A DNA stretch of 64,000 nucleotides from a virus (IMGVR_UViG_3300045988_181536:96001-160000), one strand, 5' to 3'; positions 18,269 to 39,376 are shown, counted from the stretch's first letter. Program-made: numbers and translations. Notes: generated from the sequence alone by a model not told the origin.

Positions 18269-20584
18269 TCAGAATACAAAGGCTTTCCTTATTTCATCCA
18301 TCAAGTTATTATGGTTTTCCCTAATGGTATTTGCGCATACCTGAAGATAAGCGGGATACCACTTAATGTTGGATGTGCCCTTTGATACAACATTTTTCAT
18401 CCAAGAAGTAAAGTATCCTATAAAAGATACGTGGTCAATTGCATTCTTGAAATCCTTAAAGCAATCGGCATATAAGCTGCCTTTTCCGGTGCCGAAGGTT
18501 TTATGTACAGCCAAAGCTACAGCTTCAAAGATTTGTTGAATATAGGGCGTTTTGTCACAATGACCTTCAGCCATTTCAGTAAACAATATTTGCAGAATAT
18601 TTGACAAATGGTCATAAATCGCAGCTTTATCTTTGCAACGGAAACCTAAGAAACGGGTATTTATAGGTCCTTGATAAAGCGGATGACCTTGATAATCCGG
18701 CAGATCATTCTCTACAGGCATATTGTTAATATACTCCACAACCTTTGGAGGCAGCTGATCTAAATTTCGCAGAAGACGCAGTGACTGCATGCTGTGAATT
18801 AAGCGCTTGGGGAACAACGCCCTGCTTTCATGACCGAATAAGTCGCAAATCCTAAGTTTCTCTTCCATAGGAATGCTGTTATATTTTTCATGTCTGCAAA
18901 GATAAGAGCACATGCTCCTATGCCACCAGTTAGGCATAACATCCGCCTTTACATTCGGATTTTTATTTAACTGATCCGCGTGTAAAATCTTTTGATAATC
19001 ATTTATAAATTCATCCAACAAAGACTTAGGTTCAGGAATAGATCCAGGGAACAAAGCGTCCTCTGCCATAATAACTTCAAGCGTAGGACGGAAACGCTGT
19101 ACTTTGCCTATGCTGCGAACATTTTTCCGAAGTTCTTTAAGTTCTTCAATGGCCTCATTTAAATCTATTTCATATTCGCTTTTATTTATTCCAGTCCAAG
19201 CATTTCCTGGCTGAATAGGAAATACCTTTTCAGGTTCTTGATTTAACCTTGCGGCCTTTTCTGCAATTGCCTTCTGCCTTTGTTCGAAAATGGTTATGCT
19301 GTAATCTATTGCTTCCTGAATGTCTTTAATATGGTTGCTGCGACGTTCCAGAGATTTAAAAAACCTAAACGGAGCCAAATAAACCGCATGCAAAGATTCG
19401 CTTAAAAATCTATAACTCATCACTGAAGAGAATTGTTTTTCAGGACGAATATATTTTCCAAGATAACGCTTGCTTATGGACTTAAGATCCTTTTGAAATC
19501 TTTCCCATTTGCGGCATTTATCCGCTTGAATTGTATCCTCTAAAGATTCTGTGCCCTGGGGCTTGGCTGGAGGAGACCATTTGAGGGCTTTTCTGTCCAC
19601 CTCCATATAGTCTATTATGGTTTTATTGGAATCATTTCCTGTATGTGCGCTGCAAGCAACTCTAAGTTCATTCAACATCTTCCAATAGCTTTTTTTGCAG
19701 AATCTGCCACCCATAGAATTGATAAGATTCTTAAGATAAAGAATATTGGGAAGATGATGCTGTATATCACCTTCTCGCTTACGTTCTAAATCAAGATAAA
19801 GCGAATGATAAAACTTGGTTCCGTGAAGCTTATTGGATATGAACTTGAAATTCATCATTACCGCCATATTCGGATTTGACGGGCAATAATCCAAAGACAT
19901 GTCTAAGAGATGAAGCGCATGTGTATCTGCCAAGGAGCAATGATTGTAATTGGCATATTGTATGCGCTTTAATTGAGGATTATAACCTGCAAAAAACTTA
20001 ACAGACTTAAGCCCCCTTTCTGGAACATTGCAACGACGATCAGATAAAGTCCAGCCGTAACCGTTGGTGGCTTTAGGGTTTTTTTCAGCCCATTCCTTCT
20101 CAAGCTGTGCTCTTTTCTGAGCACGTTCCTTTGCCTGTTGCTCCTTTTTTAAGGCTGCTTCTTTTTCCAGCTTTTCCTTTTTTAAAGCCTCTTCCTTGGC
20201 CTTTCTTCTCTCTGCAAGCATCTGTTGATAGATTGCTCTGCCTTTTGCAATAGCTTGTCTTCTACGCTCTCTGTCTTCTTCGGAGATATTTAAAGGCTTA
20301 GTGACTTTGTAACCCTTGGGGCGTCGAAAACGATATTTGTCCAACTTGGCTTTAGCTAATTCTAAAACTTTTTCTGAAACCGTATATTTCCTCTTGCCAG
20401 TTTTCGTGGCTCTATCTGCAGCCACTAAATTCATGCAACATTGTACTAAAGTTTTTTGATTTGCTTTAAGCTTATCTTGATCCAAACGTCCAGTTCCACC
20501 CCCGCGAGCTCTGTGCACCTTCTCGTTCAGGATGCTCTTAGACATATCGCAGTATTCTTCTGTATTACCAATAGTTGTTGCCAT
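18269..20584 (-). CDS. hypothetical 771-aa protein with a Lys/Glu coiled-coil segment; the only large minus-strand gene besides tnpB
   Basis: 'KAKEEALKKEKLEKEAALKKEQQAKERAQKRAQLEKE' coiled coil. No catalytic motif recognised. It is transcribed divergently from the 1.2-kb non-coding hub. Confidence 0.5.
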   Translation of the reverse strand: MATTIGNTEEYCDMSKSILNEKVHRARGGGTGRLDQDKLKANQKTLVQCCMNLVAADRATKTGKRKYTVSEKVLELAKAKLDKYRFRRPKGYKVTKPLNISEEDRERRRQAIAKGRAIYQQMLAERRKAKEEALKKEKLEKEAALKKEQQAKERAQKRAQLEKEWAEKNPKATNGYGWTLSDRRCNVPERGLKSVKFFAGYNPQLKRIQYANYNHCSLADTHALHLLDMSLDYCPSNPNMAVMMNFKFISNKLHGTKFYHSLYLDLERKREGDIQHHLPNILYLKNLINSMGGRFCKKSYWKMLNELRVACSAHTGNDSNKTIIDYMEVDRKALKWSPPAKPQGTESLEDTIQADKCRKWERFQKDLKSISKRYLGKYIRPEKQFSSVMSYRFLSESLHAVYLAPFRFFKSLERRSNHIKDIQEAIDYSITIFEQRQKAIAEKAARLNQEPEKVFPIQPGNAWTGINKSEYEIDLNEAIEELKELRKNVRSIGKVQRFRPTLEVIMAEDALFPGSIPEPKSLLDEFINDYQKILHADQLNKNPNVKADVMPNWWHRSMCSYLCRHEKYNSIPMEEKLRICDLFGHESRALFPKRLIHSMQSLRLLRNLDQLPPKVVEYINNMPVENDLPDYQGHPLYQGPINTRFLGFRCKDKAAIYDHLSNILQILFTEMAEGHCDKTPYIQQIFEAVALAVHKTFGTGKGSLYADCFKDFKNAIDHVSFIGYFTSWMKNVVSKGTSNIKWYPAYLQVCANTIRENHNNLMDEIRKAFVF

Positions 20585-23217: not shown

Positions 23218-26200
23218 ATGGAAGAACAAGTAAAAACAAAAACCACGGATAATCCGGATCCGTTTACGAATGAGTTTTCCCGACAGATTTGGGAAGTAAC
23301 CTATAAAACGCAAAATGAAAAGAGTATTACAGATACGTGGAAACGTGTGGCAAATGCTGTAGCCAATGTAGAAAAGGATGAAGAATCCAAAAGATTTTAT
23401 GCTGAGGCTTTTTATGAGATTTTAAAAGATTTTAAGTTTATACCCGGAGGTCGTATATTGGCCAATGCAGGGGGTAGTTGTAAGAATGTCTCTCTCGTCA
23501 ACTGTTATCTCTCACCTGCTCCCAAATACGACATGGATTCCGTTGAAGGAATTATGGAGGTATTAAAGAACCAGGTTTTAACTTTAAAATCTGAAGGAGG
23601 CTGGGGTTTAAATTGTAGTTTTATTCGTCCCAGAGGTTCTTATATAGAAGGCATAGGTGCCAGAACCCCCGGTGCTGTAAAGTATTTGGAGCTGTTTGAT
23701 AAAAGTTCCGAAATTATTACGGAAGGTCCAGGAGAGTATTACATAGAGAATAAAGAAAAAACGCCTAAGAATGAAAAGAAGAAAATTCGCAAGGGTGCAA
23801 TGATGCTTTGTTTAAGCTGCTGGCATCCTGATATATACGAATTTATTACTGCCAAACAAAAGCCGTTTCATCTAACTAAAATGAATATGTCCGTAAATGT
23901 TACCAATGCTTTTATGGATATTTTAAATAGAGTTAACGAGCTTGTTAAAAACAATGCTTCGCAGGAAGAAATCGATGCTGTTGATTTTTGGCAATTGAGA
24001 TTTCCTGATACGGCTTTTGAAAAGTATAAATCCGAATGGGATGGAGACTTGGATAAATGGGAGAAAAAAGGTTATCCTGTAAAAGTTTATCGTACAGTAA
24101 GGGCTACTGATCTATGGGAAGCCTTAATGCAGTCTACCAGCAATCGTTCGGAGCCTGGAGTTTTATTTCTCGATAGGGCAAATGAGACACATTGCGCAAA
24201 TTATATCCCTGAGTTGCAATTAGTTGGGACAAATCCTTGTCTTACTGGAGATACCAAAGTTGCTGTTGCTGACGGGCGTACAAATGTGACTATTAAAGAG
24301 TTGGCCGAAGCTGGCAGAGATGTTCCGGTGTTAGCTTGTGATAATGCTGGCAATATTGTTACAAAGTTAATGCGTAATCCTCGTATTACAGGCTATAATA
24401 AAGATATTTATCGAGTGACTTTAGATGATGGTAATCATATTGATTGCACGTCTAATCATAAGTTTAGATTGTCTGATGGAACATATAAAGAGGTAAAAGA
24501 TTTATCAACAGGTGTAGCTTTGCACACAAATACGTTAAGTGTAGAAGAGTATAAACGTTATTTAGTGCAGGAAGTTTTAAATACGGAAATTACCCCTAAT
24601 CTTCAGCTTGATTCCGTACAACAACTGTGTGAAGAAGCAAAGTCTCAGGGTTATGAGGTAAAAATAGATAATAACATAGTTTTGGTTAAGAGGGTTTGTG
24701 AGGAATGTGGAAAAGAACATTTTGTTCCATTTACTCATCGCGAAATTGCGTTTTGTTCTCTGGAATGTTTAAATACCCATTTGAATAAAGAAAAAATCGC
24801 TGCCAAAACCACAAATACTGATTTAGATGTAATATCTGCTGAGGATTGGCCTGTAAGGTTTGTTTCGTCTATTGAATATATAGGCAAACAAGATGTCTAT
24901 ACCGGTACAGTTGATGATGTGCATAATTATTGCGTTGGGATGTTTGAAACTGTGAATGAACATGGACATCCAAAATTTTATATACTTAATAATCAGCAGT
25001 GCGGAGAGCAGGTTTTATACAGCGGAGGATGCTGCAACTTAGGATCCATCAATCTTACGGCATTTATAGAGTACGATGAAACTAAACATGCCGCCGTTTT
25101 TAACTTTCAGAAGTTCTCTGATATTGTTCCTTATTGCGTAAGATTCTTGGATAATGTCATAGACATTGCCAATCTGCCTTTGGAAGAATATAAATATATG
25201 GCTGAAAGTTATCGAAGAATCGGGCTTGGTATTACAGGCATAGGCTCTGCTTTAATGATGTTGGGTCTAAAATACGATTCTAAGGAAGCTAAAGACTTTT
25301 TAACTAAAGTTTTTGATGTTTATAATTTCTTAGGGATAAGGGCAAGTATCGCTTTAGCTAAATGTAAAGGTGCGTTTAAAGGATGCAATCCTGCAAAACA
25401 TGCTGATAATATAAAATATACGTTTAGACATTTACCGAAGTATATATTGGATGCTTTGCAAAAAGAATTGTTAGAAACTAACGGCATCCGCAATTCAGCC
25501 TTGTTCTCAGTCCAACCGACAGGCAATACAGGGTGTCTAGCCAATAATATTTCAGGCGGTGTGGAACCTGTGTTTCAGTTAGAATACTACAGAATTGTTG
25601 GAGTGCCGATTGTTCCTGAAAGCATAAAAGATAAATGTCCTAGGTTCTGGGAGGGGGATTTTACTCCGAACAATTATTTCAAAGAAGTTAAATACGCAGA
25701 TTTTACTTACTTGTCTTACGTAACTGAAGCTGGCCAAGAATATCAGATACATAAAGATAGAGGTCTGTGTGAAAAAGTAAAAATTCGAGATTATGCTTAC
25801 CAATGGATCTTGGATCATAATTTAGAATATCCACAGGAAGTTTTTACAACAGCTATGCAACTACCTGTTGAATCTCATTTGGAAATTCTGAAATTAGTAT
25901 CTGCACATTTGGATTCCGCTGTAAGTAAAACGATAAATGTTGGCAAGGATTACCCTTATGAACAGTTTAAGAATGTTTATTTAGATGCATATAATAGCGG
26001 AGTAATAAAAGGAGTTACGACTTATCGTGAGGGTTCTATGAGTGCAGTATTGCAAACTACGGATTCGAAAGATGACGTAAATCCTACATCTACATCGATT
26101 ATTCATCCTACTATTACTGCTGAGAAACGTCCTGATATATTGCCGTGTAGAGTATTTTTTAGAACGGTAAAAGGAATATCTTATTACTTTATTGTAAGTT

Positions 26201-26664
26201 TCTTGGAAAATAGTCCGTTTGAGATGTTTATTGACATAAATGAAGATAACATTTTTGACGAGGATGGAGAATGGGTTGAGCGCCGTCGCATTATACCCAA
26301 GACTGTAAAGGAAGGAACTTTAAAGAAGTTGGGTAAGGCTACGTTCGAGTTTGTATCTAAAGATGAGAAATTTATATTTAAAATTGTAAAAGCCAATGAG
26401 TCTTCAGATAAAGCCACATTAACAGCCCTTGCTCGTTTGGTGGCTTTGAATTTGCAGTCCGGTGTATCAGTGAAAGAGATAATACATCAGCTATCTAAAA
26501 CCGAAGGGGATTTTACTTCAATTGTGAAAGCAATTAACAAAGTATTGTCTCAGTGTGCTGGTAAAGTTGATCTTGGAGAAACATGCCCTGTTTGCGGAGG
26601 TAAAGTGTTACGTGAAGAGGGATGTAAAAAATGCTATGCATGTGGATGGTCTGCATGCGGCTAA
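23218..26664 (+). CDS. ribonucleotide reductase catalytic subunit, probably class II (NrdJ-like, monomeric) with a C-terminal zinc ribbon, interrupted by an intein at the NPC active-site motif
   Basis: 'SEGGWGLNCSFIRPRGSYIEG' loop. 'EPGVLFLDRAN...VGTNP|C' then an intein. The extein resumes 'CGEQVLYSGGCCNLGSINL'. C-terminal 'CPVCGG...CKKCYACGWSACG'. No NrdB is adjacent. Confidence 0.8.
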   Translation: MEEQVKTKTTDNPDPFTNEFSRQIWEVTYKTQNEKSITDTWKRVANAVANVEKDEESKRFYAEAFYEILKDFKFIPGGRILANAGGSCKNVSLVNCYLSPAPKYDMDSVEGIMEVLKNQVLTLKSEGGWGLNCSFIRPRGSYIEGIGARTPGAVKYLELFDKSSEIITEGPGEYYIENKEKTPKNEKKKIRKGAMMLCLSCWHPDIYEFITAKQKPFHLTKMNMSVNVTNAFMDILNRVNELVKNNASQEEIDAVDFWQLRFPDTAFEKYKSEWDGDLDKWEKKGYPVKVYRTVRATDLWEALMQSTSNRSEPGVLFLDRANETHCANYIPELQLVGTNPCLTGDTKVAVADGRTNVTIKELAEAGRDVPVLACDNAGNIVTKLMRNPRITGYNKDIYRVTLDDGNHIDCTSNHKFRLSDGTYKEVKDLSTGVALHTNTLSVEEYKRYLVQEVLNTEITPNLQLDSVQQLCEEAKSQGYEVKIDNNIVLVKRVCEECGKEHFVPFTHREIAFCSLECLNTHLNKEKIAAKTTNTDLDVISAEDWPVRFVSSIEYIGKQDVYTGTVDDVHNYCVGMFETVNEHGHPKFYILNNQQCGEQVLYSGGCCNLGSINLTAFIEYDETKHAAVFNFQKFSDIVPYCVRFLDNVIDIANLPLEEYKYMAESYRRIGLGITGIGSALMMLGLKYDSKEAKDFLTKVFDVYNFLGIRASIALAKCKGAFKGCNPAKHADNIKYTFRHLPKYILDALQKELLETNGIRNSALFSVQPTGNTGCLANNISGGVEPVFQLEYYRIVGVPIVPESIKDKCPRFWEGDFTPNNYFKEVKYADFTYLSYVTEAGQEYQIHKDRGLCEKVKIRDYAYQWILDHNLEYPQEVFTTAMQLPVESHLEILKLVSAHLDSAVSKTINVGKDYPYEQFKNVYLDAYNSGVIKGVTTYREGSMSAVLQTTDSKDDVNPTSTSIIHPTITAEKRPDILPCRVFFRTVKGISYYFIVSFLENSPFEMFIDINEDNIFDEDGEWVERRRIIPKTVKEGTLKKLGKATFEFVSKDEKFIFKIVKANESSDKATLTALARLVALNLQSGVSVKEIIHQLSKTEGDFTSIVKAINKVLSQCAGKVDLGETCPVCGGKVLREEGCKKCYACGWSACG
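24238..24999 (+). mobile_element. intein (~254 aa) inserted in the RNR NPC|GE motif; contains a Cys-rich insert, possibly a degenerate endonuclease
   Basis: N-terminal splice block A 'CLTGDTKVAV', block B 'TSNH', block F 'VYTGTVDDVHNY'. The apparent C-terminal junction is '...ILNNQQ|CGEQ', where the terminal Gln is unusual. The insert is 'VCEECGKEHFVPFTHREIAFCSLEC'. Confidence 0.65.
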
Positions 26665-26717
26665 TTTAAACTTAACAAACGACGGGCAAGACTTCCTGCC
26701 CGTCGTTTTTAAAAACC

Positions 26718-29700
26718 ATGAGAGAAAGCGAAATTAATTTACCCCCCGTGAATATGGATTTGCCATGTCCTAAATTGGCAGATTTTTGCGGAGATTTATC
26801 GTATAAACGTTGTAAGGATGACTTAACTCCCGAAAACGATAATGTAGTATTTTTAAATGGTGTAGGCAGGTTAAATGCGGATATAATGTTTTTAACTGCG
26901 GCGCCATTAAAAGAGGATGTGGATGCGAGATATTCTACACCTATGCATTTAAAATCGGGTGCCGGTGAAATGTTTCGCGCAATATGTTTGCAAAATGGCA
27001 TTGATATTGATGACTGTTATTTTACGTCATTAATAAAGTACGGAATAAAACAAAAGAATTTAAAAGGTTGTAAAAAGGATATAGATTATTGTTTGCCTTT
27101 GCTTCTGGAAGAATTTCAGTATTGTCACCCAAAAATTATAGTTTGCGTCGGTACGGAAGCGTGTGACTTTATTTTAAATTATAAAATAAGCGTATCAAAA
27201 TTGGAAGAGGCGTGGTTTTTTAGTCAAGAACACAACGCTCATGTGTTTGTAATTAGCAGTATTTATAATGCCTATTATAAGCCTGAATTGTACGATAAAT
27301 TAGATAAAGAGATAGGCATGTTGGCTGACTTTTATGATCATTTTCTACAAGGCAAGCCAATCGAGCAGATAAAGTGTGACTATCAATGTATTTCAACTTA
27401 TTCACAGTTATCCAATTTGTTAAATCAGCTTAAGTCTGAAGGTTATAAATTATTTGGAGTTGACTGCGAGTGGGGTAAACAATGTTTTGTAGACGGATAT
27501 CTTAGATCAATACAATTTGCATGGGCTCCAGGCAAGGCAGCTTATATAAACTTTAATAATGAACAAGCCGAATGGGTCTTTGATGCATCAAAAGAATCGG
27601 TATGTAAATTATTGCAAGATTTTTTTAATGACCCTGAAGTGCATTTTGTAGGGCATAACGGAGCGGCTGATGCTCAATGGATGTCAACACATTTGGGACT
27701 AAATGTGTATGACGGCAAGTTTATTTTTGACACCATGTTTGGTATTCAGACAGCTGATGAATATGCTGATCAAAAGTTGGAAAAATTAGCTGCCAAATAC
27801 ACAGATAAAGGCAGATATGATATTGATCTGATCTTATGGAAGAAAAATAATAAAGGCGTATCCTTTGATGAAGATGAAGGATATGGACAAGTTCCTTTGG
27901 AAATTCTTTACCCATATGGTTGTTCGGATGCCGATGTAACTTTAAGATTGTATCCGATTATTAAAGACATGTTAATTAAAGACGGCACTTATGATTATTT
28001 CATGAATATTAAGTTGCCGTTTGTTATTGATGGATTTACCTCCATGTCTATTGCGGGTGTGCCTTTTTGCACTGAGGATGCCAATAAAGCGCGAATAGCT
28101 TATCTGGCCGCAGGCGTAGTCATGCAAAAGTTGTTTATGCAAATGCTTAAAAAAGAGGCATATGATTTGTTTTATACGGAAGTGTCAAAAATTCCGCAGG
28201 AAACGCCTGTAGCGAATATTGCAGAAATTCAAAAGTTTTTTGATGATGAAAGATCTTTTGAAGATATTTTTAATCTGTTAAAAAAACTTTATGGGCGCAA
28301 AGCATTGCCTTTATTGCCGTTTGCTGAACATTATTACTATGTGGATGCCTTTAATCCCAATTCTGCAGAGCATAAAAAGAAATGGTTGTTTGACGTAAAG
28401 AAATACACGCCTATTAAAACAACTAAGCCGGAAGAGGGTAATGCAATACCCTGGGAAAGAGTATTAAAAATGTCCCCCGCTAAGCAGAAAAATTATAAGC
28501 CTGCTGTGGATAAAGATACTCTTAAAATATTTGCGGATAAAGGAGATGATTTATGTCTGCATTTATTGCAAATGAATGCAATTAATCAGATAACCAAGAA
28601 TTTTCTAAAAGGTGAAGAAGGCGGGCTGCAAAAGTTTTTAACTTCAGATGGAAGGCTGCATTCCAACTTCGTTATGACCGAAAGCTCACGGCCACGATCG
28701 TTTAAGCCTAACATCTTAAACATACCAAGATATGTTACAGATTACATAGACAAGGGTTTCACGAAAGTATTAAAGTATTTTAATATTACAGATAAATCTG
28801 ATTTGTCGGAGTTTAATGAAGATAATTTTAATGAAATCGTAAATTCTTTACGTGAAACTTACGGCATTACCGAAAATATAACGATAAAAGATATGGTGCC
28901 TGCACCGTTGCGCTGGTGCTTTAAAGCGCCTGAAGGGTATTGTTTTGTCGATGCAGACTATGCCACAGCTGAAGTATGGTCGATTGCATATTTGGCAAAT
29001 GATAAAAAGTTAATTTCCACTTTGAATGATCCGGATCCGCAATTTGCATTTAAAAAGATGCCTGATGGTTCGGAAAAACAAGTGCGTATAGCATATTGTG
29101 ATGACATTGTTGAATTTACTGAAGATGCAAAAGATCCTGCACTACTTGTAGATCCTAATGATCCGGATTTGGTGAGAAATAATGACGGGTCTCTAAAGCA
29201 TCCGAAACAAGATGTTCACTGGGTTGCAGTGGAAAATAAATTTATGCTTAACACACCCCGAGAAAAGTTAAACAAGAAGAAGACGAGAGATGCTGCGGGA
29301 AAGGTAGCTAATTTTTGTTCTGGCAAAGAAAATTACGTTTATACTTTAGAGGGTTATAAAAAAGCAAAGTTAATAAAACAAGGAGATATTTTAAAATCAA
29401 TATCCGGTTTTACAAAAACTTTATCTGTTACTGCTTTAAATGAGAGAGACTGCATTAAGATCAGATTAAGTTCCGGATTAGTGGCTACTTATCATAAATA
29501 TCATAAGCTTAGATGCTTTAATGGTACGGAAATGGTCTGGGTAAGAGTTAAAGATATCGATCCAAAAAGGCATAAAGTAGTTACCTTCAATCCGAGTTTT
29601 ACTGAAGTTATAGGCACTTTTAATGTTCCAAAAGATTCTTATACGGATTTTTATACAGAATTGAAATGTCGTGAAGGTGATAATACCTATCGCTTGCCTG

Positions 29701-30677
29701 AGTGGATATTCTCTTTAAGTCGTGCTGAGATTTGGAGTATATTGCAACGCTTTTTAGAATTAAACCCCCGAGTCACCGATGCGGTGTGTTATCATTTTCC
29801 GTTAAAATTTTGGAAAAATAATTTAGAATTTATTTCCGATATTGCTTTATTGTTGAATTTTATAGGTTTTCAAACCAAGCTTTCGTTGGAACAAGGCGAG
29901 GATGTTTTAGTGGCTTCGGCTGCTATCGAACCTAATGGGCCTTTGCAAAATATTTATTTTAGTGAAGTTGTTTCTTTGGAACATGTGAAAGAAGATATTG
30001 TGGCAATTGAATGTGAATCCCATGAATATATAGACACTTCAATGAATAGCCATAATTCGATTCCTTATGGTGCAAGTCCTTCTTTGCTGGAACGTAACAT
30101 TGAAATAGCTTCAGGTGAAAAACCTGAACCTGGTACGGGACAAAAACTTATTGACGCCTATATGAACACCAAACCGCAAGTTGCAGAATTTTTGGAATGG
30201 TGTAAGTCTCTGCCTGACGGACAAGGGTATTACCAATCGCCTTCGGGATTTAAAAGACATTTTAAAATACCGCCTTTGGATGCTCAAATGTCGGATGATC
30301 TTAGAGAAAGTATCATAAGTAAACTTCGTCGAGAAGCTTGCAATATAGGATTGCAATCTTTGGTTGCTGACTCTTTAGCAAGGGCCATACCTCCACTAAA
30401 TGCCAGTTTTAGAAAGATGAATATGAAGAGCAGAGTAGTAATTCCTTTGTATGACGCTATTTATATTTTATCTCCTTACAACGAAGTCGATTTGGCTGTA
30501 AGTATGTTGAAGTTTTTTATGTCTGAGAATAATTATTGGGACCTAAAAGGCGGTCGCTTGCGTTACAGTATTGATGTCGAAGTTACAAAACGGTGGGGTA
30601 CAGAACTTTCTGAAGAAGAACACAAAGAACTAACTGAAGGATTAAAAAACGCTTGCCAGACGTTCAAGCTTGCGTAG
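26718..30677 (+). CDS. family-A DNA polymerase with a 3'-5' exonuclease domain, interrupted by an intein in motif B
   Basis: Exo I 'VDCEW', Exo II 'VGHNGAADAQWM', Exo III 'YPYGCSDADV'. Pol motif A 'DADYATAEVWSIAY'. Motif B 'RDAAGKVANF|[intein]|SIPYGAS'. Motif C-like 'PLYDAIYIL'. The likely true start is ATG 26754 ('MDLPCPK'). Confidence 0.8.
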   Translation: MRESEINLPPVNMDLPCPKLADFCGDLSYKRCKDDLTPENDNVVFLNGVGRLNADIMFLTAAPLKEDVDARYSTPMHLKSGAGEMFRAICLQNGIDIDDCYFTSLIKYGIKQKNLKGCKKDIDYCLPLLLEEFQYCHPKIIVCVGTEACDFILNYKISVSKLEEAWFFSQEHNAHVFVISSIYNAYYKPELYDKLDKEIGMLADFYDHFLQGKPIEQIKCDYQCISTYSQLSNLLNQLKSEGYKLFGVDCEWGKQCFVDGYLRSIQFAWAPGKAAYINFNNEQAEWVFDASKESVCKLLQDFFNDPEVHFVGHNGAADAQWMSTHLGLNVYDGKFIFDTMFGIQTADEYADQKLEKLAAKYTDKGRYDIDLILWKKNNKGVSFDEDEGYGQVPLEILYPYGCSDADVTLRLYPIIKDMLIKDGTYDYFMNIKLPFVIDGFTSMSIAGVPFCTEDANKARIAYLAAGVVMQKLFMQMLKKEAYDLFYTEVSKIPQETPVANIAEIQKFFDDERSFEDIFNLLKKLYGRKALPLLPFAEHYYYVDAFNPNSAEHKKKWLFDVKKYTPIKTTKPEEGNAIPWERVLKMSPAKQKNYKPAVDKDTLKIFADKGDDLCLHLLQMNAINQITKNFLKGEEGGLQKFLTSDGRLHSNFVMTESSRPRSFKPNILNIPRYVTDYIDKGFTKVLKYFNITDKSDLSEFNEDNFNEIVNSLRETYGITENITIKDMVPAPLRWCFKAPEGYCFVDADYATAEVWSIAYLANDKKLISTLNDPDPQFAFKKMPDGSEKQVRIAYCDDIVEFTEDAKDPALLVDPNDPDLVRNNDGSLKHPKQDVHWVAVENKFMLNTPREKLNKKKTRDAAGKVANFCSGKENYVYTLEGYKKAKLIKQGDILKSISGFTKTLSVTALNERDCIKIRLSSGLVATYHKYHKLRCFNGTEMVWVRVKDIDPKRHKVVTFNPSFTEVIGTFNVPKDSYTDFYTELKCREGDNTYRLPEWIFSLSRAEIWSILQRFLELNPRVTDAVCYHFPLKFWKNNLEFISDIALLLNFIGFQTKLSLEQGEDVLVASAAIEPNGPLQNIYFSEVVSLEHVKEDIVAIECESHEYIDTSMNSHNSIPYGASPSLLERNIEIASGEKPEPGTGQKLIDAYMNTKPQVAEFLEWCKSLPDGQGYYQSPSGFKRHFKIPPLDAQMSDDLRESIISKLRREACNIGLQSLVADSLARAIPPLNASFRKMNMKSRVVIPLYDAIYILSPYNEVDLAVSMLKFFMSENNYWDLKGGRLRYSIDVEVTKRWGTELSEEEHKELTEGLKNACQTFKLA
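29316..30056 (+). mobile_element. intein (~247 aa) in DNA polymerase motif B
   Basis: Begins 'CSGKENYVY' directly after 'ANF'. Block B 'ATYH'. Ends '...ECESHEYIDTSMNSHN' followed by +1 Ser ('SIPYGAS'), which restores the motif-B consensus NF-xxPYG-xS. Confidence 0.7.
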
Positions 30678-30717
30678 CGTTGGCAGGTATACAAACACAA
30701 GAATATACACATAAAAT

Positions 30718-32268
30718 ATGGCTTATTTGAATCTATCACAATCATCTATGAATAATACAAAACAAAATTCAGTTTTATCTTCGTTTTTTCGGAATAATAT
30801 TCCGTGGGTTAGGCTAGCTCCTCCTCGTGAAAACGAACCGAATATGGTTGTCCGAATACTTCCGGGCATGGATTTTTCATTTCAGAATAACACAGAAGCT
30901 CTACTAAGTTCTACAGAACCTTTTAAAACAGCATCCGGACAATATACATCTTGGGCGCAGTTTGTAAAAGGTTATATGTTTTTTGGCAGTTTTAAGATGC
31001 ATTTGTTATCGCCTGATACTTTGGATATGACTTCACATACGTATCCAAGAAGAGGCGCAGATGCATTTTGCGATTTAAGGAGTTTTATCTTCTTTAACAC
31101 AGGAAAATATGCGACAACAAATCCTCTTACAGGACAGCCTACAATTACACCTGAAGAGGAAGAACTGATTAAGTATAGACCATATTCGCCTAATAATACT
31201 GCTGCAAATTTTGAATCGGTTAAGCTACCGAGCAAACCTCGTACATTTGTTTTGTCGAATGTTTTGCATCGCAATCCTCAAACTGAACAAATGGAGCAGA
31301 AGATAGGCGTATATAGTGAGCAAATGTTCCAGACGCTTGTGCAAATTGTAAAACAGCAAATTGCTGCCAATTCCGGTTTGTCTTCAGTGTCGGCAAATTA
31401 TCCTGAACTGTTGTTCGGAGACGTAACTGATCAGGAAACGGGATGTTTGCTTGAAGTGAGGTATTGTCATAATACTTTAACAAACAATAGAATACTCACT
31501 CTTACTCCTTCGAAAGATCCAAATAATGAAACACGTTTGGGCTATTCACAATATCCCGTTTCGGATGATATTTTGAAGAAAAGGTATATATTGTGTGATC
31601 CTGAAAATGTTTTAGAGATCTGGACTTATCAACAGCAGCTCGATTTGCTGTGTAAGGATCCTATGTTCCCGATCGACTTGTTGAAAAAGGCTAAGGATAA
31701 TGGAGTCTTTAAAGACGCAGAATTGCATTTGGAATTGCGCGAAGAAGGTTTGGAAATGCTGGCAAGGCGTGAATCGTTTAAGCGAAATGCTGCTGAAGGC
31801 ATTTATACGCCGCAACCTGGCGTTGCCAAAGCTGCTATAGGAAATCGCCCAATTCCAACAATACAAAAACCTGTGATTCCGATTCCAGCAACAGATAAAG
31901 CTGCAGCAAATCTTCCTCCAGTGAATGTTGAAGCTTTGCATACAGCTTCTATATCTGCCAAACCCGTAACGGAACTAGATTTAATTGTAGAAGATTATCA
32001 TGAGGATGCACAAAATAGTGCACCGGTTGTTGAAGAGGTTAAACCTGCGGAAACTGTCAAACGCTCAGTTCAGGGGGAGCCTTATACTCCAACATCAAAT
32101 ACAGATATTCCGGAGGATAATGCGACATTAAGTCGTGCTAAAGCTTCACTATCTGCAGAAGATTATGAAAAGTTTCGTACATTGCATATGGCAATGATAA
32201 CGAATCCTCAAAAAATGACTCCTCAAACAATGATGGAGTATTTTCAACTTAACGCTAAAATACATTAA
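30718..32268 (+). CDS. hypothetical protein (between polymerase and recombinase; an ssDNA-binding role is possible but unsupported)
   Basis: ORF only. Confidence 0.3.
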   Translation: MAYLNLSQSSMNNTKQNSVLSSFFRNNIPWVRLAPPRENEPNMVVRILPGMDFSFQNNTEALLSSTEPFKTASGQYTSWAQFVKGYMFFGSFKMHLLSPDTLDMTSHTYPRRGADAFCDLRSFIFFNTGKYATTNPLTGQPTITPEEEELIKYRPYSPNNTAANFESVKLPSKPRTFVLSNVLHRNPQTEQMEQKIGVYSEQMFQTLVQIVKQQIAANSGLSSVSANYPELLFGDVTDQETGCLLEVRYCHNTLTNNRILTLTPSKDPNNETRLGYSQYPVSDDILKKRYILCDPENVLEIWTYQQQLDLLCKDPMFPIDLLKKAKDNGVFKDAELHLELREEGLEMLARRESFKRNAAEGIYTPQPGVAKAAIGNRPIPTIQKPVIPIPATDKAAANLPPVNVEALHTASISAKPVTELDLIVEDYHEDAQNSAPVVEEVKPAETVKRSVQGEPYTPTSNTDIPEDNATLSRAKASLSAEDYEKFRTLHMAMITNPQKMTPQTMMEYFQLNAKIH

Positions 32269-32274
32269 TTTTAA

Positions 32275-33771
32275 ATGCCTAGAATTAAAAAAGATCAATC
32301 AACAGCGGAGGTTAAACCCTCCGCTGTTGTAAGAGATGTTTTAGACGACTCTGGTATTTCTTTAAGGGCCATGGGCACAACCAAGAAAGCCAGTTTAGCC
32401 GGTTTAAGTTTGAGCCAGTTTTTAGAAGAAGAAGCTGTGCCTGCTTTGCCGTTTGAATCGCCTTTGTTACAATATACGTTTGCAAGTACAGGTATCAATA
32501 CGGGTACTGCATTGGAAATTATTGGAGAAGATGGTATTGGTAAAACCACTATGGCTTTGTCTTTAGTTGGTATGGGATTGAGAAATCATCCGTATGCAGT
32601 TGCTTTATATTTAAATTCAGAGGGTAAAAATAAATTATTTAGCGAAGATCGCATTGCTTCTTGTTTAAGTCTTAATAAGCAGGAAGCAAAAGATATGATT
32701 GCTAATCGCGTGCGTTGGAGTGAAGTTGCGACGTTAAATCATGCATTGGAATCCATTCTGAATTTTGGGCGTGTAGTACGAGAAAATCTAGATAAACGAG
32801 GAATTAGCAGAAACGATTCCCCAATTTTTGTGGTTTTGGATACCTTGTCTAAATTGATGCCGAAAAACGAAGCGGCGTTGCTTGGTTTAGGGGACAAATC
32901 CAGTAATCCTGCAATTAATTCTTTGGAAGATACCTCAAATCTTGAATTTGCCAGAACATTGCAGCGTTGGTCAAGGGCTATGGCTTATAGCCTTGAGGAG
33001 TATGGTATTTGTTTAATTTTGGTGTCCCATCAAAATACTAAAATTGAGATGAATACTTTTGCTGCAAGATTTTTATCTCAGGCTGCCTTGAAAGAAGATA
33101 ACCGAACAAAAATCGGAGGAAATGCTTTAAATCAAAGTGTAACTTTGCAGTTTACCTTAACTAAGGGAAAAATTTTAACGAGGGAAACTTCGACAAGTAA
33201 AACTCCCATAGGTCAAATTGTGAAGTTAAAGGTGGTAAAAAATTCCCTCTCGATTCCGCATCGCGATTGTCTGTATGTATTAAATATAGATCATAGTTTT
33301 GATACGGAGGAAGAATGGGATCAGCCGTTAAAGTTTGATTACGGCTTGCCGGAAATGTTTATTAAAGAACGCTTGTATGGACTAAAAGTAGCTTCAGTTC
33401 AAAAAGATACATTTACGTCTAAAGCTTTGAATATAGATAATGCTCCTCGGCAGGATGTAATATCAGTACTTAAACCTTTAATATCTGATGTTTTAGATGA
33501 GTTAAATATACGCGGGCATGATCGTATACAAGACATACAAGATGTGGATATCGAGGGAGATCAGGTGTTGGAGGGTGATGAATCTGAAGTAAATACTCCT
33601 GAGGGTTCTCAAGAAACTGAAGAAACATTTGATGATATTTCAGATGCAATAGGACCTTCTTTTGATGAAGAACCTGCGGAAGAGATTACATTAAATGCGG
33701 AAGTTACTCCGAAAAAACGAGGTCGAAAACCTAAAGTAAAAAAAGATAAGGATGACGAAAGGGATCTCTAA
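32275..33771 (+). CDS. RecA/UvsX-family recombinase with an acidic C-terminal tail ending in a basic 'KKRGRKPKVKK' patch
   Basis: Walker A 'EIIGEDGIGKTTMALSL' (RecA: EIYGPESSGKTTLTL). 'FVVLDTLSKLMPKNE' (RecA: IVVDSVAALTPKAE). Confidence 0.65.
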   Translation: MPRIKKDQSTAEVKPSAVVRDVLDDSGISLRAMGTTKKASLAGLSLSQFLEEEAVPALPFESPLLQYTFASTGINTGTALEIIGEDGIGKTTMALSLVGMGLRNHPYAVALYLNSEGKNKLFSEDRIASCLSLNKQEAKDMIANRVRWSEVATLNHALESILNFGRVVRENLDKRGISRNDSPIFVVLDTLSKLMPKNEAALLGLGDKSSNPAINSLEDTSNLEFARTLQRWSRAMAYSLEEYGICLILVSHQNTKIEMNTFAARFLSQAALKEDNRTKIGGNALNQSVTLQFTLTKGKILTRETSTSKTPIGQIVKLKVVKNSLSIPHRDCLYVLNIDHSFDTEEEWDQPLKFDYGLPEMFIKERLYGLKVASVQKDTFTSKALNIDNAPRQDVISVLKPLISDVLDELNIRGHDRIQDIQDVDIEGDQVLEGDESEVNTPEGSQETEETFDDISDAIGPSFDEEPAEEITLNAEVTPKKRGRKPKVKKDKDDERDL

Positions 33772-34267
33772 CTTTTTATTGTATTCCGATCATAATTATC
33801 TTCAATCGTTAAAAAAATTAACTGGCGTTAGGCTTCCTCCTGAGATTCAAACAATGGAGGAAGCTTTATTTTATCACGTAAGTCAGGTAGGTGACCTAAA
33901 TTTGCCTTTAGATGAAGATAATTTAATTGTTGTTTATGAGAGTATTAATCCTGTTTTGGCATTTGTTAATTCTGCAGTTACGGGTAAGTTAAATACTAAA
34001 ATGTTTAATTTATTGGACTCTATTTCAACAGATCCAAACATGATTATGGTTTTGGCGGATACAAGCTTTATGCCACCAAATAATCTTTTTGTATATTCTC
34101 CTAGCACCAAACTCAGGAAACATGTTACGTCTAATACGGACGCTGCTGTATTCACAATGACTTCTGCAGATTATACTTTGGAAAAATATAATTCCAAAGA
34201 AGATCTGGAATTTATCCCTGAATGCAGGCAGTTGATTTCTTTGAAATCCTTTTTAATACAACTTTAA
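33752..34267 (+). CDS. hypothetical protein
   Basis: ORF only. Confidence 0.3.
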   Translation: MTKGISNFLLYSDHNYLQSLKKLTGVRLPPEIQTMEEALFYHVSQVGDLNLPLDEDNLIVVYESINPVLAFVNSAVTGKLNTKMFNLLDSISTDPNMIMVLADTSFMPPNNLFVYSPSTKLRKHVTSNTDAAVFTMTSADYTLEKYNSKEDLEFIPECRQLISLKSFLIQL

Positions 34268-34338
34268 AGAATGTTGCTTAACTTACTGAAATTTACAAGT
34301 AAAGTTTAGTTTATAATCACTAACTTTTAATAAACTAT

Positions 34339-34653
34339 ATGCTTCGTATTTGTCCATGTGATGGCATAATCATAATGGATAAGGCTTTATTAGAGTTAGT
34401 GAAACAAAAAAAGCTTACTTATCATAAGGCATTGACGGACGAAAAATATAGGAAATATGTCTATTGGTATGAGGTATATTCTCTATCAACAGATGAAGAT
34501 AGCCAATCAGACTGTGCTCGAGAATCGAGATTTGACAATTTAAAATCAAAATTTGCTCGACGAAAGCTGTCACGGTTATATCAAGCTATAGAATTTCGAC
34601 GACGAACGCGCAAACCTTGTGATCAAAATAAATCTTCAAAGCGTACATCATAA
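34339..34653 (+). CDS. hypothetical basic protein; its 3' end overlaps the first tandem-repeat copy
   Basis: ORF only. Confidence 0.3.
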   Translation: MLRICPCDGIIIMDKALLELVKQKKLTYHKALTDEKYRKYVYWYEVYSLSTDEDSQSDCARESRFDNLKSKFARRKLSRLYQAIEFRRRTRKPCDQNKSSKRTS

Positions 34654-34865
34654 TCGGCACAAGACAAATACCACCTATCTCTTCAGGTAGGTGCCCTCAC
34701 TAAAAAACCAGAACTTGACATTCTTGGACATCGGGAGGCCACGCCACTAATAACGTACATCATAATCGGCACAAGACAAATACCACCTATCTCTTCAGGT
34801 AGATGCCCTCACTAAAAAACCAGAACTTGACATTCTTGGACATCGGGAGGCCACGCCACTAATAA
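34642..34865 (+). repeat. perfect tandem duplication, 2 x 112 bp (one mismatch: ggtaggtg versus ggtagatg)
   Basis: Unit 'cgtacatcataatcggcacaagacaaataccacctatctcttcaggtaggtgccctcactaaaaaaccagaacttgacattcttggacatcgggaggccacgccactaataa' at 34642-34753 and 34754-34865. It contains a hairpin 'cacctat...taggtg' and a TTGACA hexamer. Confidence 0.9.
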
Positions 34866-34892
34866 CGAAAGGTTTATATACAGCAAAAATAC

Positions 34893-36668
34893 ATGAATGA
34901 AACTATAACTGAAACACATAAAACCTTATCGAATCCGCCACCTTCGACAAATGGTAAAACTTCGATTTTTGAGAAGAGACGAATCTTGGCATCTCTAGAT
35001 AAAACGCATCGCGATTTTAATACCTATATGCGTAATCTGCAGAAGGTATTGGAGGTGTTTGAGTATCCTTCGTTAAGGCCTAATCAAGTTGAACCTGTAA
35101 TCCATTTGTTAAAAGGTCAAGATTTGCTGCTTGTATCTAGTACATCTTCTGGCAAATCTTTTTGCTATATTGCCCCATCCTTAGCGATGGGGTATAAAAC
35201 CATAGTGTTTTTTCCTTTGGTAGCGTTAATTCAAGACCAATGGAAAGAGTTGATGCAGAGAGGAGTGCGTGTAGGCGTAGTATCTTCGGGAGTATCATTA
35301 ACAGAAGCGAATAAAGCCATGGCCGAATGGGAGCAGGGTGCTTTGGACTTTTTGTTTGTGGCTCCGGAAAGATTGCAAAATAAAAAATTTTTAGAGCTAA
35401 TGGATAGAGTTCCCCCTGATTTTGTTGTGGTGGATGAAATTCATTGCGCTTATGAGCAGGCTACCTCGTTTCGATCTTCGTATAAAAAGATAGCGCCATT
35501 TGTGGAGCGGGTTTGTCCAAAACTTTTTCTTGGTCAAACAGCTACGATGTCGGATGATGTAGAAAAGGCTGTTAGAGAAATTTATAATCTAAAGGACACA
35601 CCTAAGTTAGTTAAGTCTTATCCAAGACCGAATTTGCATTTTCGTTCAATAAAAATTGAATCGGACAAGGCTGATGATTGGGTATTTCGGGAACTTAATA
35701 AATCTCCATTGGTTCCTAGTATCGTTTATTGTTCTACAGTTAATATGGTATCCGATCTTTACAGGATTTATGGTCCTGCAATTGTTGGGGGTTCCATGAT
35801 GTACACAGGACAAATGTCTCCATCCCAACGTAAAGCCAATCAAACGAATTTTCTTAACGGTAATATTCGTGTGGCTTTTGCTACCAATGCTTTTGGAATG
35901 GGCATTAACAAACCTGATATTGGCAGAATTATTTTACGCTCGTTTCCAGGAAGCCTGGAGGAATTAATTCAAGAGTTTGGAAGAGGAGGTCGCAACGGTT
36001 GTGACTGTGATTGTGTTTTGTTGGCGGATTATCGTACATTAAATACGCAAAACTTTTTTATCGATACAGCATTTCCTGACATTCGTTATTACTATAAATT
36101 TTTTGACGCTTTAAAACAATTTCAAAATCCCAGTACGCACATGGTTACTGCTACATTAAAAGAGTTGGCAGACAAGATTGGTATTCATCCTATGTGTATT
36201 GGGGGCATCAGTGAGGCGTTGAAAGGTTTTAAGATAATTGATCGCGCTGAACCTACTACAGAGACTCGAATTAGATTTCTTGATTGTCCTGACGATACGT
36301 CTTCGGGTGTAGGTAAAAAATTTGCATTGTATAAAGAGAAAATTGATTTAATAGGTATTGATAATACTGATCTTTCTTGCTTTGAAGTTGATTTAGAATA
36401 TCTTGCAGAAGAAGTTGGAGCATCTAATGTAAATACGATTAAAACTAATTTAACTAAATTTCAAAATTTAGGCTGGATAGATGTAAAAATGCCTTCTCGT
36501 AGTCAACCAATTAAGATTATTGGAGATATGTCATTATTTAGTGAAGAAAAAATTAAGCAAGAGCGTGAAAAAAAGAAATTAAAGCTTGAAGAGGTAAAAA
36601 ATTTTGTTGATATTCCTGATCCATATAAGGCAGAGTATCTAGATAAATACTTTGAAACACATAGCTAA
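34893..36668 (+). CDS. RecQ-family DNA helicase
   Basis: 'SGKSFCYIAPSL' (RecQ GKSLCYQ[IL]PAL), 'FFPLVALIQDQ', 'FLFVAPERL' (RecQ LLYVAPERL), DExH 'VVVDEIHCAYEQATSFRSSY', 'FATNAFGMGINKPDI'. Confidence 0.8.
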   Translation: MNETITETHKTLSNPPPSTNGKTSIFEKRRILASLDKTHRDFNTYMRNLQKVLEVFEYPSLRPNQVEPVIHLLKGQDLLLVSSTSSGKSFCYIAPSLAMGYKTIVFFPLVALIQDQWKELMQRGVRVGVVSSGVSLTEANKAMAEWEQGALDFLFVAPERLQNKKFLELMDRVPPDFVVVDEIHCAYEQATSFRSSYKKIAPFVERVCPKLFLGQTATMSDDVEKAVREIYNLKDTPKLVKSYPRPNLHFRSIKIESDKADDWVFRELNKSPLVPSIVYCSTVNMVSDLYRIYGPAIVGGSMMYTGQMSPSQRKANQTNFLNGNIRVAFATNAFGMGINKPDIGRIILRSFPGSLEELIQEFGRGGRNGCDCDCVLLADYRTLNTQNFFIDTAFPDIRYYYKFFDALKQFQNPSTHMVTATLKELADKIGIHPMCIGGISEALKGFKIIDRAEPTTETRIRFLDCPDDTSSGVGKKFALYKEKIDLIGIDNTDLSCFEVDLEYLAEEVGASNVNTIKTNLTKFQNLGWIDVKMPSRSQPIKIIGDMSLFSEEKIKQEREKKKLKLEEVKNFVDIPDPYKAEYLDKYFETHS

Positions 36669-36670
36669 AA

Positions 36671-37189
36671 ATGGAAAATATCGAACAAGATAAACTTTTG
36701 GGAGCTTTAAATAAGGCTTCTGAAGGTTTACAAAATCTAATTTCAAGCGTTAAGACGCAAGACGAAGCGGTTAAGTTATTTGGCGCTGAGAACGTTCAAG
36801 AAGGCTCATATCAGTGCAAAGTTTGCGGAAAATTGGTAAGTTATTCAAAATTAATTATTTTTGATACCCCAGTAGTCAAAGGAGTCACAGCTTATATTTG
36901 TCCTGATTGTTGGAAACTTGTAAATGAAAATAAATTATGGAAGTTAGTTTGTGTAGGGTGTAAAGAATTTAAACAGGCCATGGAGCCTGGAATTAACCCT
37001 AAGAACGGTTTTGAATTTAAACCTGGAAAATGTTATCATCTGTTACAATGTCCATCTTGTCACCCTGAACATTTTGACTTGACCAATAAAAAGCAAGGTG
37101 AGGTAATTGCACTGCCTTTAATTGAAGAGATATTATACGATCAAAAGCTAAAAGAAAGATTTGCTAAACCCTTTAATCCTGAAAAATAA
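36671..37189 (+). CDS. zinc-ribbon protein (four CxxC pairs)
   Basis: 'CKVCGK...CPDCWK...CVGCKEF...CPSCHP'. Confidence 0.4.
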   Translation: MENIEQDKLLGALNKASEGLQNLISSVKTQDEAVKLFGAENVQEGSYQCKVCGKLVSYSKLIIFDTPVVKGVTAYICPDCWKLVNENKLWKLVCVGCKEFKQAMEPGINPKNGFEFKPGKCYHLLQCPSCHPEHFDLTNKKQGEVIALPLIEEILYDQKLKERFAKPFNPEK

Positions 37190-37191
37190 TA

Positions 37192-37668
37192 ATGAAAAAA
37201 GAAACTAAAGAATCTAAAAAAGACACAACACTTCGCGACATATATAAAATGTACAACAGCGATAAGAGAAAGTTCATAGATACGATTATAAATAGCGGAG
37301 AACAATGCATTCTTCGTGCAGGAAGTTTGACTGTTCCAGTTTACATGGAAGAGTACATAGAAGAGGAATCTCCAGACGAAAAGTTTTACTTCTTCACAGT
37401 TACGCCAGAAGTACTAGAGGAAGATATTGTAGATCTGAAAATTTTTAACGAGTTTATCAGTGATATGTTATTTTCTGTATCGGATTTTAGCGTATCTGTT
37501 AATTCTGAAAATTTAATTGAAATTGTTTTGGATCCTAAACATTGGAAAGAGTTGTTAACTGAACTAATTGAGGACGTTAGGGAACGTCAGATATTATATG
37601 CGAATGTTTGCGAATTGACACTTAATCCTTTTCGCCAATTTAATTTTAATACGATAGAAGTAGAGTAA
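37192..37668 (+). CDS. hypothetical acidic protein
   Basis: ORF only. Confidence 0.3.
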   Translation: MKKETKESKKDTTLRDIYKMYNSDKRKFIDTIINSGEQCILRAGSLTVPVYMEEYIEEESPDEKFYFFTVTPEVLEEDIVDLKIFNEFISDMLFSVSDFSVSVNSENLIEIVLDPKHWKELLTELIEDVRERQILYANVCELTLNPFRQFNFNTIEVE

Positions 37669-37686
37669 AACACTAAAGGAGTCTAC

Positions 37687-38478: not shown

Positions 38479-38535
38479 AAGTTTAAAATGCTTTAGTTAA
38501 TAATTTAAGGGCGCCAATTAAGACGCCCTTAAATT

Positions 38536-38583: not shown

Positions 38584-38589
38584 ATTATT

Positions 38590-39369: not shown

Positions 39370-39376
39370 TTTATAC

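Follow-up and report, generated by a model that had tools for sequence, protein, structure and literature searches.

The viral DNA analysed here, IMGVR_UViG_3300045988_181536:96001-160000 (64,000 nucleotides, hereafter the window), raises the question of whether the long inserts in three of its genes, i.e. those encoding a ribonucleotide reductase (RNR), a family A DNA polymerase (PolA) and a fragment of an RNA polymerase (RNAP) beta-like subunit, are inteins and, if so, whether they still splice and still home. A sequence-only reading of positions 23218-30677 had proposed three inteins within about 18 kb, and this was borne out: the three genes span 23218-41685, i.e. 18.5 kb, with the third lying beyond that interval. 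Our data suggest, with a probability of about 0.9, that each gene is interrupted by one intein and that the precursors self-splice by the standard class 1 pathway. This reading builds on the junctions, the conserved catalytic residues, the HINT fold, the selection pattern and the exchange of alleles between phages, all of which are established by the data.

The RNR gene (23218-26664, plus strand) encodes a precursor of 1148 aa with exteins of 894 aa, and its intein of 254 aa occupies positions 24238-24999 (+; precursor aa 341-594), with the boundaries LVGTNP↓CLTGDTKV...FYILNNQQ↓CGEQ (arrows mark the junctions). The size of the insert, its CLTGDTKV start and its NNQQ↓C end, as given in the sequence-only reading, are fixed by empty alleles: proteins 80-99 % identical to the query are either of the 1148 aa form with the same intein or of 894, 891 or 871 aa without it, the latter showing an uninterrupted TNPCGEQ (1148-894 = 254), and alleles of about 1380 aa hold a bigger intein in the same NP↓C position. 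At the DNA level, the window gene minus 762 nt aligns colinearly and gap-free with the intein-less RNR of a syntenic contig (L001) at 96.2 % nucleotide identity, with no mismatch in the 30 bp flanking the insertion point on each side. The split had been described as NPC↓GE, which names the right active-site motif but not the exact junction; judged from the alignments, the intein is placed between the Pro and the Cys of NPCGE, and that Cys is the +1 residue. The NPCGE loop provides catalytic Asn, Cys and Glu residues, of which the Cys carries the thiyl radical. The intein matched PF14890 (5e-12) and TIGR01445 (1.4e-12) and shows Cys1, a block B TSNH (aa 71-74), a block F VYTGTVDDVHNY, the C-terminus LNNQQ and Cys at +1, the block F position being our own reading, assigned from motif spacing. 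Cys was the +1 residue in every same-site RNR intein among those listed. Regarding the host protein, Pfam detected Ribonuc_red_lgN, Ribonuc_red_lgC and TSCPD, with the Intein_splicing match lying within the barrel domain; the barrel, the NPCGE loop and the C-terminal TSCPD/Cys-rich tail are all present, the spliced sequence corresponds to the intein-less alleles, and a cluster mate is named adenosylcobalamin-dependent RNR in its source record. The enzyme is, by all sequence features, a class II (B12-type, adenosylcobalamin) RNR, its cofactor use being predicted.

The PolA gene (26718-30677, +) encodes a UDG-3'-5' exonuclease-family A DNA polymerase (Pfam: UDG, DNA_pol_A_exo1 and DNA_pol_A, the last match being broken into two stretches) with a precursor of 1319 aa and exteins of 1072 aa. 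Its intein of 247 aa (29316-30056, +; precursor aa 867-1113) has the boundaries KVANF↓CSGKENYV...MNSHN↓SIPYGAS, and relatives of 1070-1078 aa read GK(I/V)(S/A)NF↓SIPYG with no insert, confirming the proposed split of motif B by a 247-aa element ending SHN↓S. We take the insertion point to be motif B, i.e. the O-helix (K-x3-F-x3-YG). In the family alignment, C1, H63 (block B), H236 and D240 (block F) as well as S245-H246-N247 are invariant, and Ser is the +1 residue in every same-site PolA intein. Because a PDB profile search from the alignment gave marginal intein matches only (0.08-1.2), structure prediction was needed; in the Foldseek search of the PDB, nearly all matches listed for the AlphaFold2 model were inteins or other HINT-fold domains (probability about 1.0), the best being 7qsu (TliVMA; 1e-4).

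The third intein, of 157 aa (41059-41529, +), forms aa 178-334 of the product of ORF 40528-41685 (+), an RNAP beta-like fragment (fork domain) with a precursor of 385 aa and exteins of 228 aa. While this ORF has no Pfam match itself, its intein-less homologues carry PF04565 (RNA_pol_Rpb2_3), the beta fork domain, and the order in the precursor is NVHPSQFGVIDAVVGPE, the 157-aa insert and SEKIGVDVRLA. The boundaries are VVGPE↓CLVFNP...YWTGN↓SEKIGV, and empty relatives of 222-265 aa read either GPE↓SEKIGVD or GPE↓G(I/M)(R/K). By alignment, the insertion corresponds to the ...TPEG... fork motif lining the active-centre cleft; the claim that all three inserts sit in catalytic motifs therefore holds for RNR and PolA but not for beta, where no catalytic residue motif is interrupted. 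The intein contains Cys1, a block B TPDHR (aa 68-72), Cys134 in block F, the C-terminus WTGN and Ser at +1, and in the family alignment C1, T-P-x-H-R, C134 and T-G-N (Thr155) are invariant, with +1 Ser in every same-site beta intein. The family profile matched 6zgq (AceL NrdHF) in the PDB at 1e-8, and the same entry was the best Foldseek match of the AlphaFold2 model (pLDDT 89.9; TM 0.71-0.73); together with the empty GPE↓SEKIG relatives, this HINT-fold model upholds the beta-subunit mini-intein of the sequence-only reading.

Alignment of the exteins with intein-free homologues thus gave exact junctions at all three sites, where the interrupted motif is restored in the empty orthologues (NP↓CGEQ, NF↓SIPYG and GPE↓SEKIG). 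Native insertions devoid of splice nucleophiles, which had been named as the outcome contrary to inteins, were not seen; Cys is the first residue of all three inserts, the +1 residue is Cys in RNR and Ser in PolA and beta, and both positions are conserved at every site. The HINT fold was recognized by HMM for RNR and by predicted structure plus Foldseek for PolA and beta. Block B contains Thr-x-x-His in RNR (TSNH) and beta (TPDH), and the His only in PolA, and the C-terminal residues are SHN in PolA (canonical), TGN in beta (Gly for His) and QQ in RNR (neither residue canonical). C1, the block B His and the terminal (H/G)N or xQ are invariant in the intein family alignments. By the proposed mechanism, Cys1 would form a thioester with the N-extein, which would then move to the +1 residue, i.e. 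the Cys of the NPCGE loop in RNR or the Ser in PolA and beta; the final intein residue would cyclise (Asn in PolA and beta, Gln in RNR) and an acyl shift would regenerate NPCGE, the motif B helix KVANF-SIPYG of PolA and the beta fork motif GPE-SEKIG. Unspliced, all three enzymes should be inactive, and following intein removal the three genes would encode normal enzymes.

None of the three inteins contains an intact HNH or two-motif LAGLIDADG domain, and probably no working homing endonuclease is left in any of them. In the RNR intein, the N-terminal HINT arm (aa 1-88; 24238-24501, +), which is 100 % identical to the arm of the same-lineage HNH-bearing allele, and the C-terminal HINT arm with its Gln-Gln end (aa 211-254; 24868-24999, +) enclose a central cassette (aa 89-210; 24502-24867, +) that appears to be a remnant of an endonuclease region without an HNH domain. 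It includes a Cys4 finger, CEECGKEHFVPFTHREIAFCSLEC (24697-24768, +), i.e. CxxC-x15-CxxxC with an FCS motif, which gave weak treble-clef matches only (VATC, 0.011; zf_Tbcl_2, 0.024). The sequence-only reading had seen a possible degenerate HNH in this Cys4 insert, a suggestion we reject: the 486-aa RNR siblings P0026, P0042, P0052 and P0053 carry a separate true HNH_3 domain, then the same CxxC...FCSxxC finger and then more sequence, the Cys4 module following HNH_3 in P0026, P0042 and P0053, at a distance of about 170 aa in P0026. Pfam detected HNH_3 in the P0026 intein and none in the RNR intein of the window. Since the latter is without the HNH part, and yet its finger is the one that follows HNH_3 in the siblings, the finger is probably an accessory remnant. 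An endonuclease gene placed out of frame inside the RNR intein was likewise rejected, as there is no ORF of more than 53 aa there.

In the PolA intein, a second-half LAGLIDADG remnant (29694-29876, +), delimited by alignment with P0135, P0128 and P0134, has lost the first motif by deletion and retains a degenerate second one (SILQRFLELNP). Intact LAGLIDADG motifs, FAYLMGLYLGDGSL and LLAGLIDSDGSV, are found in P0135 only, and the PolA inteins shrink from 431 aa in P0135 through degenerate forms of 325-329 aa to the 247 aa of the window. The beta family comprises both mini (142-159 aa) and LAGLIDADG (342-355 aa) forms, the window intein being a mini form which, at 157 aa, is too small to hold an endonuclease domain.

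The codon differences follow the same division. Compared with the RNR intein of a second contig (L002), there are 29 synonymous and 7 non-synonymous differences in the N arm and 13 and 4 in the C arm, i.e. 42 and 11 over the 132 codons of both arms combined, as opposed to 6 synonymous and 13 non-synonymous differences in the central cassette. The PolA intein differs from that of L001 by 11:1 in HINT-N, 1:0 in HINT-C and 10:10 in the centre (synonymous:non-synonymous), compared to 99:10 in the N-extein, and the beta intein differs from that of the relative L005 by 31:18 in blocks A-B, 18:8 in blocks F-G and 15:23 in the middle. Hence, the splicing parts appear to be constrained and the centres not, the pattern expected of inteins that need splicing but no nuclease. 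In RNR, the intein is best described as an HNH-deleted version retaining a decaying zinc-finger cassette that evolves about neutrally.

The most unusual residue among the three inteins is the terminal Gln of the RNR intein. It had been called rare, which is true among inteins generally, but at the RNR NP↓C site Gln is, by our count, the majority state: the last residue of 73 same-site inteins (among the 120 best matches) is Gln in 54, Asn in 13 and Gly in 6. The terminal Gln is conserved across lineages with extein identities down to 38-51 %, while the residue before the last one varies (Q, L, M, K or A). According to a review, Gln is able to cyclise in place of Asn, the RNR intein of Chilo iridescent virus (CIV) splices more efficiently with the Gln it naturally carries than with Asn, and many working inteins are without the penultimate His (PMC4031507). 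Phage inteins often have Gly, Lys or Ser in place of this His, as stated in Kelley et al. 2016 (PMC5050341). Judging from the mechanism, cleavage at an upstream Asn in the RNR intein could not yield ligation, because the amine of Cys+1 would remain blocked. This large natural set of Gln-terminated inteins before the NPCGE Cys should be useful for studying Gln cyclisation. Among the relatives outside the window, six clusters of NP↓C-site inteins (P0056, P0059, P0069, P0072, P0073 and P0106) end in Gly and have no terminal Asn, Gln or Asp; these read ...NGFVQRG↓CGEQ or ...GYVQ(R/Q)G↓CGEQ and exist as mini (137 aa) and LAGLIDADG (about 360 aa) forms.

How the inteins are distributed differs from site to site. 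Three phage lineages, A (window, P0026 and P0035), B (P0030, P0042 and P0043) and C (P0050, P0052 and P0057), with exteins 51-77 % identical, each hold empty, 254-aa mini and 486-aa HNH alleles of RNR. Despite this extein divergence, the mini intein is 87-91 % identical across the lineages. The HINT arms of mini and HNH inteins are 98-100 % identical within a lineage and 82-93 % between lineages, and between lineages the mini centre is 87-93 % identical, compared to 57-71 % for the HNH centre. A particularly clear case is L002, a 244-kb contig with a gene order unrelated to that of the window, where nucleotide identity to the window is 45-70 % in the RNR exteins and rises abruptly to 90-97 % within the intein (94.3 % in the central cassette, 84.5 % in the arms). 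Because the codon differences in the cassette are mainly non-synonymous, its high identity probably reflects recent sharing and not constraint. We regard this as evidence for a recent spread of a nuclease-less intein cassette among divergent phages. When the window is compared with L001, mismatches are packed more densely up to about 140 bp from the RNR site, and likewise around a vacant second intein site, Asn95↓Cys96 (SLVN↓CYLSP; 23500-23505, +), and this raised mismatch density beside both sites looks like co-conversion. The second site is filled in RNR alleles that are 98 % identical: a 395-aa LAGLIDADG intein (CFCKGA...IVTHN) lies at LVN↓C in the P0003 (1543 aa) and P0032 (1289 aa) groups, i.e. 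with or without the NP↓C-site intein, respectively. Considering that the dead centre of the mini intein (about 370 nt) is near-identical across the three lineages, it is tempting to speculate that the mini intein is a non-autonomous mobile element paired with the autonomous HNH form, a possibility we raise only tentatively. If true, the HINT arms would act as recombination arms with which a nuclease-free cassette sweeps across divergent co-infecting phages, displacing or riding on its HNH-encoding sibling, and the closest parallel would be a miniature transposon relying on its full-length counterpart.

Empty sites in related phages, which the sequence-only reading had taken as a possible indication of homing, bear this out only in part: they are common among close relatives of the window RNR, but those of PolA first appear when identity has dropped to about 50 %, and those of beta when extein identity has dropped to about 72 %. 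Every PolA relative above 60 % identity carries an insert, and in close relatives the site appears to be always occupied, by either of two very different alleles: inteins of 247 and 237 aa, 31 % identical, share one codon boundary with sharp DNA edges, and the genomes carrying one or the other have exteins about 99 % identical, and 91-100 % identical at the nucleotide level (L004, 5821-9714, compared with the window). The 237-aa allele is also found in proteins merely 66-69 % identical to the window PolA (P0129). The identity of the beta intein, in turn, declines alongside that of the exteins (98, 69, 58 and 38 %), consistent with a fixed intein inherited vertically with its host gene. Beta-type inteins form a very large family in metagenomes, with 12,379 representative proteins at E ≤ 1e-3, one of which is a fused Rpb2-Rpb1-type polymerase. 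The three inteins therefore seem to be at different stages of the intein life cycle, the RNR site being still polymorphic, i.e. empty, mini or HNH-bearing.

Several observations weigh against the proposal of three inteins spliced by the class 1 pathway. The RNR intein is off-consensus at three assisting positions, i.e. the terminal Gln, the penultimate Gln and the Thr that replaces the usual block F Asp, and block B of PolA has an invariant His63 but no conserved Thr three residues upstream. The PolA model is of medium confidence (pLDDT 66.8, from a six-sequence alignment). While a profile search of the inserts matched intein HMMs for RNR, the PolA and beta inserts alone gave zero matches in Pfam and NCBIfam. 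The invariant block F Cys and block G Thr of the beta intein are class 3 traits, and its first step may not be that of class 1, because its nearest solved relative is a proven class 3 intein. Finally, splicing itself and its chemistry are things we infer from sequence, models and population patterns.

That the inserts are lineage-specific domains retained, without splicing, in the mature enzymes would agree with the silence of both databases on PolA and beta and with the occupied site in all of the closer PolA relatives; the NPCGE loop, the motif B helix and the PE↓G/S fork motif are, however, cut exactly where intein-less orthologues are continuous, the inserts have Cys at position 1, Cys or Ser at +1 and a HINT fold, and two PolA alleles as different as those described above at one codon boundary suit mobile inteins and not a structural domain. 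We therefore consider this hardly credible. Very unlikely, too, is the idea that one or more of the inteins is dead for splicing, with the host gene a decaying pseudogene or bypassed. The likeliest case would be RNR with its Gln-Gln end, which has no canonical terminal Asn, penultimate His or block F Asp and whose intein-less alleles circulate in the same population. Nevertheless, the reading frames are intact, the HINT arms differ mainly by synonymous changes, the terminal Gln has been retained where extein identity is down to 38-51 %, alleles with and without the intein have exteins 97-99 % identical in protein (96.2 % in nucleotides), and a Gln-terminated RNR intein is known to splice (PMC4031507).

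Two further alternatives concern single inteins. Zinc fingers serve as DNA-binding or spacing modules in certain homing endonucleases, and the Cys4 cassette of the RNR mini-intein might accordingly be a functional minimal nuclease or DNA-targeting module that drives homing alone. It is present in three independently sampled lineages, between which it is the most conserved part of the intein, and HNH-less inteins of various sizes at the RNR site retain the finger (P0027 and P0055). We regard such a role as improbable, considering the excess of non-synonymous changes in the cassette (6:13), the 15 residues between the Cys pairs, a spacing too short to hold a beta-beta-alpha-metal nuclease core, the replacement of the GKEH His by Phe in P0026, the provision of the nuclease in full-length relatives by a separate HNH_3 domain, and the lack of any out-of-frame ORF above 53 aa. 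As to beta, splicing could begin at Cys134 via a class 3-type branched intermediate instead of at Cys1. Of the triplet Trp(B:12)-Cys(F:4)-Thr(G:5) that characterizes class 3, Cys134 and Thr155 are invariant, Cys134 is aligned with the catalytic Cys124 of AceL NrdHF, and this proven class 3 intein, the best structural match, is likewise without the block F and penultimate His and has Met for the Trp of the triplet. Yet class 3 inteins are defined, as in PMC5050341, by a missing N-terminal nucleophile, a definition the beta intein fails because Cys1 is retained (invariant in 11 of 11 aligned family members). Moreover, its B:12 residue is Val, Ile or Phe instead of Trp, Cys is the second commonest F:4 residue among inteins generally (PMC4031507), and the published class 3 scheme has Cys+1 as the acceptor of the N-extein, where the beta intein has Ser. 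A class 3-type start is thus unlikely, and a class 1 pathway from Cys1 remains the preferred reading for all three inteins.

Much of this fits known systems. RNR is the second most intein-rich protein in bacteria, inteins are on record in DNA polymerase I and in RNAPs of archaea, plastids, eukaryotes and large viruses (including in PMC1635734), and intein insertion into essential genes of large phages is a recognized pattern. The nearest counterpart of the RNR intein, by description, is the CIV RIR1 intein, a viral RNR intein with a terminal Gln (PMC4031507) whose virus is eukaryotic and whose site is catalogued as RIR1-i (PMC1635734); other Gln-terminated inteins are those of Pol II in Pyrococcus abyssi and Methanoculleus marisnigri. 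In contrast to the CIV intein, the window RNR family has no penultimate His, and its full-length form carries HNH, not LAGLIDADG. AceL NrdHF (6zgq) and the beta intein share the block B PNHR, the F:4 Cys and the G:5 Thr and are both without the F:13 and G:6 His; however, the former is split, begins with Ala and resides in NrdHF, whereas the latter is contiguous, has an invariant Cys1 and resides in an RNAP beta fragment. The beta intein is thereby related to an atypical class 3 intein, yet contiguous and equipped with Cys1.

The PolA model is matched by TliVMA (7qsu) across both the HINT and the inserted domain (TMq 0.57), and LAGLIDADG inteins such as TliVMA, PhoVMA and PI-SceI are the closest known systems for the PolA type, whose full-length relative P0135 has two LAGLIDADG motifs. 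Unlike the TliVMA type, the window PolA intein is without the first motif, its second motif shows no pattern of acidic catalytic residues, and its host is a family A polymerase; its sequence identity to solved inteins is 9-22 %. The inteins of RPB2, RPA2, RPC2 and viral RPO occupy strongly conserved positions close to the active centre, with two located in the fork domain, and several RPB2-type inteins end, like the beta intein, in Gly-Asn or TGN and not His-Asn (PMC1635734); their hosts are eukaryotic nuclear genes or nucleocytoplasmic viruses, whereas that of the window is a split phage beta-like subunit, and the sites are likened by description. Mycobacteriophage inteins resemble those of the window in that they occur in essential genes, often have no penultimate His and show signs of horizontal transfer, but they belong to another phage group and to other hosts (terminase, RDF, RecB and others); the accessible portion of that survey mentions no Gln-terminated RNR, PolA or RNAP beta intein (PMC5050341). 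Less ordinary are the large Gln-terminated family before the NPCGE Cys, two inteins invisible to curated HMM libraries and the spread of a nuclease-less cassette. The understanding of what inteins are is unchanged, as the three inserts are ordinary kinds of intein with a few uncommon details. Since two of them escape Pfam and NCBIfam, PolA and beta proteins of this phage group are likely to be mis-sized or called "hypothetical" in automatic annotation. For homing studies, the value of this natural population is that every stage of the cycle, as well as cassette exchange between phages, would be readable from metagenomes.

The third-position G+C content is lower in all three inteins (0.24-0.26) than in the exteins (0.28-0.33). 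Further inteins in the window were sought with HMMs of the three families, which matched their own genes only (121 ORFs), and Pfam scans of 29 window ORFs revealed none beyond the known ones; given that two of these three escaped Pfam, a fourth is possible. The phage is uncultured, with a genome of about 165-177 kb, and the window has about 35 % G+C, with nearly every gene on one strand. A megablast search of 50,697 phage records with this region gave zero matches, and protein-level matches are distant, i.e. 23-38 % identity to huge uncultured phages and to Bacteroides, crAss-like and Bacillus phages; from these searches, the phage appears to be without a close cultured relative.

The RNAP beta-like subunit is itself split, judged by homology, between two ORFs. 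The N-terminal fragment (38590-39369, +; 259 aa) is 42 % identical to aa 1-247 of P0255 (E 2e-66), one continuous protein that spans homologues of both this ORF and ORF 40528-41685. The two fragments are separated by a 380-aa Gly/Ala-rich ORF (39377-40519) that is unrelated to them and has no Pfam or PHROG match. The relative L005 keeps the same arrangement with an intervening ORF of 388 aa, and the remainder of beta is absent from the genes adjoining the split fragments.

A further mobile element of the region encodes a 371-aa TnpB/IS605 OrfB-type protein (57156-58271, -; Cas12f1-like_TNB, 5.6e-23; OrfB_IS605, 4.4e-12), and only one other large gene of the window lies on the minus strand. A set of three inteins within 18.5 kb is dense, as the sequence-only reading had stressed, yet this fits a genome with a TnpB element and a vacant fourth-intein site. 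Of the two proteins encoded at 62261-63394 and 9652-10368, one joins pentapeptide repeats (1.3e-22) to a Lar restriction-alleviation domain (3.9e-12), which suggests a possible anti-restriction role, and the other is of the ThiF family (1.6e-27). Finally, two large ORFs of 1305 and 771 aa (11002-14919 and 18269-20584 (-)) have no Pfam or PHROG match, and both are kept in the syntenic relative L001.

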